Part shown: in pieces, positions 46,261 to 52,248 of the stretch
Layout: the number at the start of each line of letters is the position of its first letter
Position numbering within the stretch: the first letter of the stretch is position 1
Source: a bacterium
GTDB lineage: Bacteria > Cyanobacteriota > Vampirovibrionia > Gastranaerophilales > Gastranaerophilaceae
DNA: 64,000 bases
Assembly (NCBI GenBank): GCA_017470815.1
Contig: JAFUXT010000030.1
Span: 24,561 to 88,560 of the forward strand
Direction: 5' to 3'
Position numbers and translations under genes: made by a program
Notes under the pieces: model-generated
Seen by the model: the letters and a program-made list of their open reading frames with translations, nothing else
Told to the model about the DNA's origin: nothing
Databases searched by the model: none

Positions 46261-49200
46261 ATGAGAATAAACAGAGTAAATAACTCCACCGCATTTACAG
46301 GTGTCAGACAGGATAGAAATACAGTAGAACAATTAAAAAAAGATAACCCTTATGATTTGAATCTGCCTAATCAGCGCAGAATTTCAAATGCCATTGAAGA
46401 ACTGTCAAAAATTCCGGGAGAAGATAATGTAAACTTTTTACTTGATATATCACAGAATCTTCGTTACGGAACAAGCATTGATTTGGGTAAAAAACCATAT
46501 AACAATTGGAGAGAAAAGCTGAATAAAGCGGCTCAAACATCTTTAAAATTGTCTGATAAATCCGTTCAGGAAAAATTATCAAAGAAACTCGAACAAGCAA
46601 TAAATGCACCAAAAATTATTACACCAGAAGAACGTGAAATAATTGCGCACCGAGAAATTCTGTTGTCAAAAATAAACCCTGAAGAACTCAAAGGTGTAAA
46701 TAAAAACGAAAGTAAAATTCAAAAGAACCTGAACTATTTTGTTATATCATCAGAAATACCAACAGCACAAAAACTCTATATACTCAAAAGACTAAATTAT
46801 ATGATGAGTGATGATTACCGCATAAACCCTCAACTTCAAGATAAAAAGACAATGGTTTTGGCTGAAATATTAAATGACATTGTAGTCGATACTCCTGAAT
46901 CAAAAATACCAAACATCAAAGCGATTAACCAAAAACAGCATGGTATGTGTGCGGCAATATCAATTTGCCGTAAAGCACTTGCTTATGAAGATAAAGCCAA
47001 CTATGTTGATATGATTTTAACAGAACTTGATGATAGCCCTAACATGATGGTTTATGACAGAGCAAATTTAGGAAAACATCAAAAAGTTCCAATACCAAAA
47101 GCCGATATAGACTATGATTACGCAATAAAAAAAGGATACAGAATCGTAGATACCTCTGTTATGAATTGGATGAATGCGGCTGATACAGTCGGAGCATTTA
47201 ATGATGTTGTTGGTGCTTATTCTGCATTTGACAAAGCAAATTTCGGGACTTTTGCTGACACTCATATTCATAAAGATATTGATGAACAAAGTGAAAAATA
47301 TCAGGATTACTACAGAAGTTGCAAAAAATCTAAAGATACACTTGCTAACTGCAAAAAAACAATTGAAAAACAAAAATACTATGCAACTATTCAAAATGCA
47401 TCAGAAAAAGAAAGAATTAATACATCTGCAAAAGATACTCAACTGTTACATTCAATAATTAAGCAAATATCACCGAATCTTGAACAAAGCGAAGTGAGAA
47501 AAATTTCAAATGAATTGCTCTCACTTGCATTGAATTATTCAGATGAAAGAAATAAATTAAACAACAAACTAAAACAATATTCATTTATTACTAATGAAGA
47601 AAAAGATGTAAAAAAACAAAAAATTGAAGAATTTTTAAATAATATTCTTGATGGGAACACAAACCACAAGATTTTAAAAGAAAAATCAGGAGAAATAGCA
47701 GATATTGTTGAAGAAATTAAAAATGTTAATAAAGGTCACGGATTGAGTTCTGCTCAAAAATATCTTGAGAATAAAGCATTATTTGAAGCCGCAGCAGCAT
47801 ACAGAACCCAGCAATCATTTGCCTTTGATATACCTGAATATCTGACGAATTCGATGGTTCAATTTAATATTCCCGATAATGAATCATATATTATTGAGAA
47901 TTTAAATACTTTAAGCAATAATATTCGTTCGGGAAAAATCAATCATGAACTTAAAGAAATCTTATCCGAGAGATTTGAAAAAGAAATAGAAGAAAAATCG
48001 CAGGAATTATCCGCACCAAAAGACGAATTACTTGCAACTGTACTTGATGATTATGCAAATACAGTCAAAATGCTGACTACAACTTTTATGGATGATATTT
48101 ACCATTCTCTTTTACTTGGTGACAGAAAACAAACACTTGTTACCCAACTTGATGCAGTAAAAAATGAAGTTTTGTCAACAAACGACAAAGATGTTATTAA
48201 AAAAGTCTCAGGTGATTTAAAAATCAAACAGAACAAATATGCAATAGCAGAAACACTCGATAAATATATTGAAACACTATCGGATGAAAATTGTACAGAT
48301 GAACAATATTCTGAAATTTATAATAAATCTGGGCATAAATCACAACTTCTTGATTTGAAAGATGCTTTTGACAATACATTTGAACTTCTGTTTTCCAATC
48401 CGAATCCGTCATATATTGCAGGCTTTAATATTATAAACGGTGCGCCGATGGATTCTGACATTGAAACAACACAAGATTTGTACAAAGTTCTTGCAACAAG
48501 TTTTAATAATATGTCAATGATTATAAAAACACTGCAGGACACACTTCAGGTAACACTAACAGATGGGAGAATGTTAAACACTGCAGATCCGAAATTTGCC
48601 GCAATGAAACACCTTGAAAAAGTTGAAGAAATGGCAACGGAAGAAGAACTTATATCTTTGAGCAATAAATTTGACGAATTTGCTAAAAACAGATATTCAC
48701 AAGACGGTACAAAGGTTAAATTTAAAGATTTGCCAAAATCAATAACGGAATTTACACCGAAAGAAAAAGCCGCACTTGAAAAATACAAAAGAAATATAAA
48801 TTCATGGTACGCAGAATCAACAAGGAATCTGAACGATATTTATGTCCAAATGAAACAACCGTTAGAAGAACTTAACAGAGAAATAGGGGTTCAAAAAGGA
48901 GAATATTGGACAAGGGAAAATGAAAGCGGTTTAATGGACAATCAGGCATTAAAAATATTTGAACACATGACAGACCGTCCGTATTATGAAGAAACAAATA
49001 TTCGTTCCGGATTAGATAAAATTAAACGCTCCCCATATTCGGCAACATCTATGACTTCAGTCAAAGATAGTGAGCCTGCTATGCATGCGCAGTACGTTGT
49101 TGACGTTAAACCGACAGTATTGACATTTGAAGATACTAACAAAATTAAAGATATCATTTTCCACGACAACAGTTGGGGCGCATCAGAACACGAAAATATA

Positions 49201-52200: not shown

Positions 52201-52248
52201 CACAGTGTACAAAAATCTTATCCGCATATTGGAATAACATCAGAATAG
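46261..52248 (+). CDS. Giant (1995 aa) K/E/N-rich hypothetical protein with a split papain-like (clan CA) signature
   Basis: An uninterrupted 6-kb ORF in an AT-rich genome is strong coding evidence. INQKQHGMC(230)AAIS and MH(942)AQYVVDV...IIFHDN(970)SWG resemble the C1 peptidase Q/C and H/N-S-W blocks. No signal peptide or TM seen. Confidence 0.85.
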   Translation: MRINRVNNSTAFTGVRQDRNTVEQLKKDNPYDLNLPNQRRISNAIEELSKIPGEDNVNFLLDISQNLRYGTSIDLGKKPYNNWREKLNKAAQTSLKLSDKSVQEKLSKKLEQAINAPKIITPEEREIIAHREILLSKINPEELKGVNKNESKIQKNLNYFVISSEIPTAQKLYILKRLNYMMSDDYRINPQLQDKKTMVLAEILNDIVVDTPESKIPNIKAINQKQHGMCAAISICRKALAYEDKANYVDMILTELDDSPNMMVYDRANLGKHQKVPIPKADIDYDYAIKKGYRIVDTSVMNWMNAADTVGAFNDVVGAYSAFDKANFGTFADTHIHKDIDEQSEKYQDYYRSCKKSKDTLANCKKTIEKQKYYATIQNASEKERINTSAKDTQLLHSIIKQISPNLEQSEVRKISNELLSLALNYSDERNKLNNKLKQYSFITNEEKDVKKQKIEEFLNNILDGNTNHKILKEKSGEIADIVEEIKNVNKGHGLSSAQKYLENKALFEAAAAYRTQQSFAFDIPEYLTNSMVQFNIPDNESYIIENLNTLSNNIRSGKINHELKEILSERFEKEIEEKSQELSAPKDELLATVLDDYANTVKMLTTTFMDDIYHSLLLGDRKQTLVTQLDAVKNEVLSTNDKDVIKKVSGDLKIKQNKYAIAETLDKYIETLSDENCTDEQYSEIYNKSGHKSQLLDLKDAFDNTFELLFSNPNPSYIAGFNIINGAPMDSDIETTQDLYKVLATSFNNMSMIIKTLQDTLQVTLTDGRMLNTADPKFAAMKHLEKVEEMATEEELISLSNKFDEFAKNRYSQDGTKVKFKDLPKSITEFTPKEKAALEKYKRNINSWYAESTRNLNDIYVQMKQPLEELNREIGVQKGEYWTRENESGLMDNQALKIFEHMTDRPYYEETNIRSGLDKIKRSPYSATSMTSVKDSEPAMHAQYVVDVKPTVLTFEDTNKIKDIIFHDNSWGASEHENIWVDKLGMLRTDYSSSYGGQEGYITNEKYQNGKLEDNLINKKGKFVPEKIPNKQYNKLLNEDNEEYTFPMIRTLIMQGVSPKAMSTVKAIKQNLLLPSSEYIDDLSKFASEMSQDEIKSAIKRIQTAGESSRKTYALLLKRINGDDVFDKGINSEEKYYNLAPNDKLRLIAEKVAIIKSYDQIPDINTYNIEVKSQKELDELHKKLRTEARNNFDYIMGKNPDILTYATESVRKDTYALLKEFAKDNKVNLSYKAMTKIVNSMKRIKKNNYDGSISQGTDLMIANFEKYLKLKTGVSDEKVKEISAKVKSLIEKNLTISENDVKTQFTSGRNEKIAGWIDREFGPKTDKEFAQILNNLRHMTNEDFKKKYNTKISDSDMGIDSINGYDVVKAIRSGSDSMKNSFINTVFSEGYYQDIEESKTRAYYDLKKLSRNLSGGTYIGGKRSFDDLYSDFYYNFQGLTIKKEFDKYKDDAFRKYFAFPAYPIVEISTEEELENSLNTFNEKLNNYMDFIYAYKNQQASLDLVYELKHYADSKLTNTGDMTPKQYSKITQDLSRLIALNSSDETLDDKKEEAGLLFASGTKDIKAYKDYINSLYDLFKIYEKTADGKTMKEAEQITLQNIDIYKKTYVMSMFEPKYQGKALELLNKWISAKSKSVWVKDHFNPTVNDESSEEAKAIAEKYTQNVKNADEIFEKFKDLFMKHRLLASPDRYMNEYLLLCAKDAKHPDRKYNNNSEESKKAIKDMRETFKTNLKSLLYKADMMELQYTLMDCAQKGNLNAVRDAFRNSTLELTDGSVVTMDSEAGLNLIISPMLQEENLDTAALFLNQLGLSEKVAKMISDKTSLDIAYKNFNRIQSIIKSSDSQAKFAREEVRNLGNIDNDANYEQIILDLKQRLMEKAKRTSFSTGASIFEAALDDAIKEIKSQPDQSKTLLLGTNIDLAIAGLREVVKANINYLNQPLQVIQKRYDLIRKLLLPDNSTVADEARKYVESLHELLEYEHSVQKSYPHIGITSE

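Follow-up and report, generated by a model that had tools for sequence, protein, structure and literature searches.

Introduction

Calpains are cysteine peptidases of clan CA (family C2, PF00648, CysPc) with a contiguous core of ~350 residues made up of two subdomains, PC1 and PC2, and they become active when a calcium switch aligns the two. A Gln-Cys-His-Asn tetrad accompanied by NxWG, rather than a Cys-His-Asp arrangement, is the signature of C1 and C2 peptidases. Cores of clan CA can be interrupted by extra sequence. In calpain-3 (p94), the insertion IS1 comprises ~48 residues within PC2, is largely disordered, is removed by autolysis, and controls activity. In the ubiquitin-specific proteases (USPs, family C19), the Cys box and the His box of the clan CA domain lie hundreds of inserted residues apart. 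Here, we describe a gene encoding a 1995-residue protein, the giant protein, in which a clan CA signature is split by a far larger distance than in papain or bleomycin hydrolase. It lies in a stretch of 64,000 nucleotides, which we call the window, from a genome of the family Gastranaerophilaceae (assembly GCA_017470815.1, contig JAFUXT010000030.1, positions 24,561 to 88,560).

We conclude, with a probability of roughly 65%, that the gene encodes a lineage-specific and probably cytoplasmic protein built around a divergent calpain-type cysteine-peptidase core, the two halves of which lie on either side of a folded helical module. Catalogues of bacterial and cyanobacterial calpains have been compiled with the CysPc hidden Markov model (HMM) (Rawlings 2015, PMC4631099; Veselenyiova 2022, PMC9380684). 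In word searches, the terms "Melainabacteria," "Vampirovibrio," and "Gastranaerophilales" did not occur in PMC9380684, and no word beginning with "insert" occurred in either article. Literature searches yielded no report of calpains in Melainabacteria or of giant proteins in Gastranaerophilales.

Results and Discussion

A complete gene with a split clan CA signature

The gene occupies positions 46261..52248 of the window on the forward strand and is a complete coding sequence with an ATG start and a stop codon. Both the start methionine and the length of the protein are kept in homologues. A preliminary description, made from the sequence alone, had presented the product as an orphan with a papain-like signature, and its reading frame and every motif and residue coordinate proved exact. 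The first block, IKAINQKQHGMCAAISI, begins at residue 219 and carries Gln224 (nt 46930-46932) and Cys230 (nt 46948-46950). The second begins at residue 939 with PAMHAQYVVDV, which contains His942 (nt 49084-49086), and is followed by Asn970-Ser-Trp-Gly (nt 49168-49179). Q224, C230, H942, and N970 thus stand in the Gln-Cys-His-Asn order of clan CA. Cys230 and His942 are 712 residues apart, as against 299 for the equivalent pair in bleomycin hydrolase (BLMH) and 134 in papain. From an AlphaFold2 (AF2) model of residues 1-1100 and the conservation profile, we divided the gene into the following parts:

46261..46707, forward strand: N-terminal region, residues 1-149; residues 1-14 are of low confidence and a helical domain follows
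46708..47292, forward strand: PC1-like core half, residues 150-344, with Gln224 and the nucleophile candidate Cys230
47293..48897, forward strand: helical insertion, residues 345-879, delimited by AF2 secondary structure at a predicted local distance difference test score (pLDDT) of ~90 and by the conservation profile
48898..49440, forward strand: PC2-like, beta-rich core half, residues 880-1060, with His942 and Asn970
49168-49209, forward strand: invariant block N970-x-W972-G973-x-x-E976-x4-W981-x-D983 within the PC2-like half
49441..52245, forward strand: C-terminal 935 residues, 1061-1995, conserved along their length and without recognizable domain or repeat

The pair of motifs is not a chance feature of the protein. 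When its sequence was shuffled 20000 times, QxxxGxC appeared in 0.9% of the shuffles and Hx(15-30)N[SP]WG in 0.055%, while both in the right order appeared in 0/20000. The composition is rich in Lys (11.1%), Glu (8.0%), and Asn (7.9%), as had been described. The highest mean hydropathy over any 19-residue Kyte-Doolittle window is only 1.2, so no transmembrane segment or signal peptide is apparent, again in agreement with the preliminary description.

A large and well-delimited family

The word "orphan" turned out to be wrong. A search of ~5.8 billion protein clusters yielded at least 335 homologues, and the best 120 of these are almost all 1940-2160 residues long and cover the query end to end at identities from 93% down to ~31%. 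The few that carry names are labeled "uncultured Candidatus Melainabacteria" or "Candidatus Gastranaerophilales." When one genome per GTDB species was scanned, 116 species genomes proved to contain relatives, and we fetched 80 of these loci. These loci come from gut and rumen metagenome-assembled genomes, and the named ones are assigned to Gastranaerophilales, Melainabacteria, Vampirovibrio, or "Cyanobacteria bacterium UBA...." The gene is present in one copy in the window, and each of the 80 fetched species genomes has one matching locus. An identical protein is encoded on a 70-kb metagenome scaffold. The family is conserved across the Gastranaerophilales/Melainabacteria, nonphotosynthetic relatives of cyanobacteria, and appears to be specific to this lineage.

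We also searched 1.84 billion cluster representatives with the joined core (the PC1-like and PC2-like halves without the insertion), using phmmer without filters. At E <= 1e-3, this returned only 157 proteins, all of them members of this family, with identities no lower than 32-33% over the matched core. The family is thus well delimited, without a detectable sequence bridge to canonical peptidases. All full-length members matched the core as two separated stretches, and the insertion-free "missing link" that we looked for among these representatives was not found. Two proteins, P0196 and P0230, looked contiguous at first sight, but they are fragments with overextended alignments.

A few members stand apart from the rest. 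The most distant ones, P0198, P0207, P0219, and P0233, are 2425-2478 residues long, 400-500 residues more than the others, and may lie outside Gastranaerophilales. P0198, at least, has an N-terminal extension, such that its PC1-like part begins near residue 365, and its composition is less AT-biased. Two loci come from records with other taxonomic labels. L023, labeled Acutalibacteraceae, encodes a member with 38% identity over query residues 12-1740, and its 5.7-kb contig ends inside the gene. L067, labeled Brachyspira sp. RUG745, encodes a member with 31% identity over query residues 1-1985. Both contigs may have been misbinned rather than transferred.

Conservation of the putative active site

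Conservation is highest in residues 1-340 and ~860-1010; the intervening part varies more, although it can still be aligned. Across alignments of 34, 94, and 38 sequences, Q224, C230, H942, D969, N970, W972, G973, E976, and W981 were invariant. The 34 aligned full-length homologues are 31-82% identical to the window protein. For a wider count, we aligned all 204 available proteins of at least 1500 residues with hmmalign and took as the denominator the sequences that cover each site. The counts were as follows:

Q224, nt 46930-46932, forward strand: 201/201
C230, nt 46948-46950, forward strand: 202/202
H942, nt 49084-49086, forward strand: 204/204
N970, forward strand: 204/204
W972, forward strand: 204/204
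E976, forward strand: 203/204

The conservation in homologues that the preliminary description had called for thus holds across ~200 members. Such near-total invariance of catalytic-type residues is the pattern expected of purifying selection on an active site and argues against a dead relic. One could still suppose that the motifs are coincidental, or the remains of a lost enzyme, in what is now a purely structural helical scaffold: no peptidase family gives an HMM-level match, and the bulk of the modeled part is helical. We consider this extremely unlikely given that the four catalytic-type residues persist together with W972 and E976 in a family whose aligned full-length members go down to 31% identity, that no shuffle reproduced the motif combination, and that conservation within the protein peaks in the core blocks.

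Conservation also extends to the extreme N-terminus. The family consensus there is M-K-I-x-x-I-N-x5-F-x-G-x-R-Q-D-R-N-T-V (window 46261-46320, residues 1-20), in which F12, G14, R16, and D18 are invariant although residues 1-14 were modeled at pLDDT < 50. This stretch, conserved yet probably disordered, could serve for export, as a degron, as an anchor, or for autoinhibition.

The predicted core resembles calpain cores

The AF2 model of residues 1-1100, computed with 37 homologues, reached a pLDDT of 89.8 and a predicted TM-score (pTM) of 0.84. According to secondary structure assigned with DSSP, Cys230 is the first residue of a predicted helix (230-243), His942 lies at the start of a predicted strand (941-956), and Asn970 directly follows the partner strand (959-969). 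In the model, this layout of a cysteine-bearing helix and a His/Asn strand pair is a papain-like arrangement. Residues 345-879 are all helical, and this module is flanked by long helices at 345-403 and 833-879. Since these two very long helices bracket the module, they probably form a stalk by which it leaves and reenters the core.

A Foldseek search of the whole 1100-residue model against the PDB gave only helical noise (best E 0.26). We therefore modeled a deletion construct in which residues 150-344 were joined directly to residues 880-1060, leaving out 345-879. AF2 predicted this construct as one confident unit (pLDDT 86.8, pTM 0.86), with only the artificial junction modeled poorly. Against the PDB, its Foldseek ranks 1-8 were all calpain protease cores with E-values of ~4e-3 to 8e-2, including CAPN5 (6p3q, E 3.7e-3), CAPN3 (6bjd, E 8.7e-3, prob 0.91, TMt 0.41), 1qxp, 6bkj, 2ary, 2p0r, and 1kxr. 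Below the calpains, the list was enriched in other clan CA proteins, namely falcipain-2/-3, IdeS/Mac-1, a Josephin-type deubiquitinase (DUB), UfSP, and a type VI secretion system (T6SS) amidase. Against the viral library BFVD, the top match was an iridovirus "papain-like proteinase" (E 6.8e-3). The preliminary description would have been contradicted by C230 and H942 falling in separate domains with no clan CA fold. The joined halves are predicted as a single unit whose best structural matches are clan CA peptidases, which supports a clan CA arrangement of Gln-Cys...His-Asn-x-Trp split by a very large insertion.

These weaker matches bear on a different reading, in which the clan CA core carries out a nonpeptidase or nonclassical reaction (as an isopeptidase or deconjugase, a deamidase, a transglutaminase-like enzyme, or through acyl transfer) on a specific partner, with the helical parts acting as a specificity scaffold. 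Many clan CA folds catalyze such reactions, and DUB-like 9fn4, UfSP 5xda, and the T6SS amidase 4bi3 are among the weaker matches. Moreover, most of the protein is noncatalytic yet conserved, suggesting a dedicated macromolecular substrate. On the other hand, the Gln-Cys-His-Asn tetrad with NxWG belongs to C1 and C2 peptidases, the best structural matches are bona fide endopeptidases, and no ubiquitin-like system is evident in the neighborhood. We regard this reading as quite unlikely.

Sequence comparison with calpain, papain, and bleomycin hydrolase

At the sequence level, the giant protein shares motifs with both candidate peptidase families. It contains the C1-type motifs NQKQHGMCA and DNSWG, and DN[ST]WG is found in nearly all members. 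The resemblance to bleomycin hydrolase that the preliminary description had pointed out is real: human BLMH (our reference is identical to 7v5l over all 455 residues) contains TNQKSSGRCW and VENSWG. The protein also has the motif residues of the calpain core in the same order, with Gln-x5-Cys and Gly at -2, then His-Ala, then Asn-x-Trp-Gly-x-x-Glu-x4-Trp-x-Asp. This last element corresponds to the calpain signature block NPWG-x-x-EW-x-G-x-W-x-D of human calpain-2, with Ser for Pro in the window protein and Ser or Thr at this site across the family. N970, W972, G973, E976, W981, and D983, all invariant or nearly so in the family, align one to one with calpain-2 N286, W288, G289, E292, W297, and D299. 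The papain match of the catalytic-Asn block extends only as far as NSWG.

Profile-profile comparisons were made with hhalign against papain, BLMH, human calpain-2 (our reference was checked against 1kfu: 799.5 bits, E 2.7e-240), and a small calpain profile consisting of calpain-2 and five cyanobacterial calpains from the supplement of PMC9380684. With default settings, none of these comparisons was significant, and they gave only motif-level or 90-column alignments. For papain, the motif-level matches were INQKQHGMCAAISIC with KNQGSCGSCWAFSAV and DIIFHDNSWG with NYILIKNSWG; for papain and BLMH, nothing but the motifs was recovered, at a probability of ~1%. The best local match to calpain-2 paired NSWGASEHENIWVD with NPWGEVEWTGRWND, and the six-sequence calpain profile aligned residues 885-983 with calpain 194-299, including the His and the Asn, at E 0.17.

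With greedy settings, the 204-sequence family profile and the six-sequence calpain profile gave one collinear alignment of 284 columns (score 26.2, P 0.014). It spans construct positions 3-344 and calpain-2 positions 22-345 and matches all of the Gln, Cys, His, Asn, Trp, and Glu residues, with the PC1-like region aligned to calpain-2 Q99/C105. Under the same settings, 40 column-shuffled calpain profiles scored at most 24.7 (next 19.9) and the reversed profile scored 15.0. Papain scored 20.9 (P 0.037, collinear), and BLMH scored 19.5 on the wrong region. The calpain profile thus exceeded 40/40 shuffled controls, the reversed profile, papain, and BLMH, which provides marginal support for the calpain link. 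The sequence evidence is marginal, and it agrees with the structural evidence in favoring calpain over papain and papain over bleomycin hydrolase. Without the insert, Cys and His would be 177 residues apart, compared with 157 in calpain-2. In this low-confidence alignment, the insertion immediately precedes the first helix of the PC2-like half, which puts it at the PC1/PC2 junction or close to it.

The preliminary description had likened the protein to papain and BLMH, and its clan CA reading and its motifs are supported; by structure and by the extended motif, the nearest relatives are nevertheless the calpains (C2). An alternative reading is a papain- or bleomycin hydrolase-type (C1/C1B) peptidase with a giant insertion. 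BLMH/PepC have the very motifs NQKxxGxC and (D/E)NSWG, these are exactly what hhalign recovers as the best local matches to papain and BLMH, and the greedy alignment with papain is collinear too. The Gln-Cys-His-Asn order and, as predicted, a clan CA fold are common to this group. Falcipain-2/-3 are among the Foldseek matches, and the first rank in BFVD goes to a viral cathepsin-like proteinase. However, C1 enzymes start only at Foldseek rank 12 (E >= 0.28), below the eight calpain cores, and the invariant E976...W981-x-D983 is matched by calpain-2 but not by papain. The calpain profile also outscores papain and BLMH under identical settings, and the C1 models in Pfam (PF00112, Peptidase_C1; PF03051, C1_2) find no match. 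We therefore think a C1 assignment unlikely. Calpain-only top ranks in Foldseek, together with the matching N-x-W-G-x-x-E-x4-W-x-D block, place the core nearer to calpain than to papain.

It is important to note that several observations weigh against a calpain-type core. Searches with the full protein, its segments, and family consensus sequences gave no Pfam match, including to Peptidase_C1, C1_2, or C2, and Peptidase_C2 was missed by hmmscan even at E <= 10. There was likewise no NCBIfam match and no PDB match by phmmer, and the family profile searched against PDB sequences found no calpain. Default hhalign probabilities were < 2% for BLMH, papain, calpain-2, and the six-sequence calpain profile alike, and identity to calpains is only ~10-14%. 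The family has NSWG, the C1 form, where calpain-2 has NPWG. The intact model returned only noise in Foldseek, and no match of the construct reached E <= 1e-3; TM-scores were low (0.19-0.41) and root-mean-square deviations were large, to which differing subdomain orientations could contribute. Taken together, the structural evidence is consistent and points to one family, but on its own it is not strong. The insertion point relative to calpain depends on a low-confidence alignment, and the C-terminal 935 residues match nothing in Pfam or the PDB. Weak library matches to colicin E9, DHR-2, and I-CreI-derived proteins were judged to be chance.

Like calpains, the giant protein has a predicted core of two subdomains and no signal peptide. 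Its architecture departs from theirs in other respects. Instead of a contiguous PC1-PC2 core, the halves are ~535 residues apart in every full-length member, and the protein, at ~2000 residues, has no C2-like, PEF, or PPC domains. Calpain-3 offers the closest parallel, being a calpain core interrupted by extra sequence, and its core structure 6bjd is among the best structural matches of the construct; unlike IS1, the ~535-residue insert is predicted to be confidently folded, helical, and located before PC2. USPs set a precedent for Cys and His parts separated by a large insertion, but they are another family with other motifs and are absent from the top of the Foldseek list. Since neither the C2 nor the C1 HMM matches and the two core halves are not contiguous, we do not file the protein in either family. 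It is possibly the founder of a new clan CA family.

Proposed mechanism and significance

Based on these comparisons, we propose how the protein might work. The PC1-like half (residues ~150-344) would contribute Gln224 for the oxyanion hole and, at the start of a helix, the nucleophile Cys230, and the PC2-like beta half (residues ~880-1060) would supply His942 and Asn970 along with the calpain-like block. Cys230 and His942 would form a thiolate-imidazolium pair, with Asn970 orienting His942. The ~535-residue all-helical module would be inserted at or near the PC1/PC2 junction and connected by its two long helices, while the N-terminal 150 and C-terminal 935 residues would serve as scaffold.

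The insert seems to be more than a linker, as it contains the conserved patches AAAAYRTQ (~509-516) and NIPDxE (536-541) and has a confident predicted orientation relative to the core, although it is less conserved than the core itself. By analogy with calpains, in which activity requires alignment of PC1 and PC2, a module at this junction would most plausibly be an arm with a regulatory or substrate-docking role, gating the cleft or setting its position. More speculatively, these proteins could form an unrecognized family within clan CA, or a calpain branch that diverged deeply, in which the helical arm replaces calcium as the switch, with a ligand, a partner, or mechanical load aligning the halves. 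Since the gene adjoins ftsZ in about one-third of related loci, the protein could then be a protease whose regulated activity targets division or cytoskeletal proteins, reminiscent of the cytoskeletal roles of eukaryotic calpains. We think this extended proposal unlikely; if true, the family or branch would be specific to the nonphotosynthetic sister lineage of cyanobacteria.

The analysis provides a testable candidate catalytic center, Cys230/His942/Asn970, for a ~2000-residue "hypothetical protein" that occurs in no fewer than 116 species genomes and that neither Pfam nor NCBIfam recognizes. Should the calpain link hold, the sparse bacterial record of calpains would extend to the sister lineage of cyanobacteria, a point of relevance to the debate on where calpains originated (PMC4631099, PMC9380684). 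If the link is only convergent or more distant, the family would still merit a new peptidase family entry. In either case, a two-subdomain protease core naturally split by a large folded module would serve the study of how subdomain alignment controls clan CA activity.

Genomic neighborhood

The giant gene is chromosomal and sits among housekeeping genes. Its immediate surroundings in the window are as follows:

42387-45137, reverse strand: ResIII/helicase-like protein, 916 aa, on the divergent side of the giant gene
45147-45845, reverse strand: OmpR-type response regulator, on the divergent side
45849-46127, reverse strand: TSCPD-domain protein, 92 aa, the divergent neighbor
46128..46260, no strand: AT-rich intergenic region of 133 nt between the divergent TSCPD gene (reverse) and giant gene (forward)
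52306-53418, reverse strand: ftsZ, convergent to the giant gene; the stop codons of the two genes are 57 nt apart
53534-53902, reverse strand: 122-aa protein with a weak SprA-related Pfam match, beyond ftsZ and followed by tsf and rpsB

The 133-nt spacer from the divergent TSCPD, response regulator, and helicase genes is as it had been described. It presumably holds the promoters of both the TSCPD gene and the giant gene, but promoter-like matches in 46128..46260 were no more common than in shuffled sequence and we assigned no promoter.

Of the 80 fetched loci, 32 contain the TSCPD gene, 26 contain ftsZ, and 17 contain the SprA-like gene. The nearer clade keeps the order TSCPD gene (divergent), giant gene, ftsZ (convergent), and SprA-like gene, and the 26/80 loci in which the giant gene adjoins ftsZ all belong to nearer relatives. 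The response regulator and the helicase adjoin the giant gene only in the closest relatives. No partner gene was universally linked to the giant gene across the 80 loci.

The neighborhood also bears on the suggestion, made in the preliminary description, of a giant effector- or toxin-like protease that is secreted or injected. Large size with an embedded protease is known from some bacterial toxins, and the invariant F12, G14, R16, and D18 in the low-confidence N-terminus could be a nonclassical export signal. However, the absence of secretion, immunity, or mobile-element genes nearby and a G+C content close to that of the surroundings do not fit an effector or toxin. The protein shows no signal peptide or transmembrane segment, no RTX or other Pfam-recognized domain, and no PADLOC or PHROG match to a defense or phage family. 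The single copy in the window, the one matching locus per fetched genome, the local synteny with the TSCPD gene and ftsZ in nearer relatives, and the identity of 31-82% along the whole length in the 34 aligned homologues also speak against it. We consider an effector or toxin very unlikely.

In the C-terminal part (residues 1061-1995), we found no Pfam or PDB match and no internal repeat, and a repeat search of the helical regions of the protein gave nothing significant.

Several related loci differ from the window around the giant gene. In 12 loci of the distant clade (L077 11857-12681, forward strand, and 11 others), a gene for a TrmB-type regulator of 274 aa follows the giant gene at a distance of ~3 nt in the same orientation, which suggests cotranscription in that clade; this regulator is absent from the window. 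In RUG12020, whose protein is 91% identical, the interval between the giant gene and ftsZ is longer by ~1.4 kb (L003 11988-13441) than in the window and in L007. Finally, six related loci have another very large open reading frame near the giant gene (upstream in four and downstream in two), the longest being 1692 aa (L031 94-5172, forward strand). This frame gives no Pfam match and has a repetitive N-terminus, rich in Asn, Gly, and Thr, that looks like a beta-helix adhesin; it bears no relation to the giant protein, and the window does not contain it.

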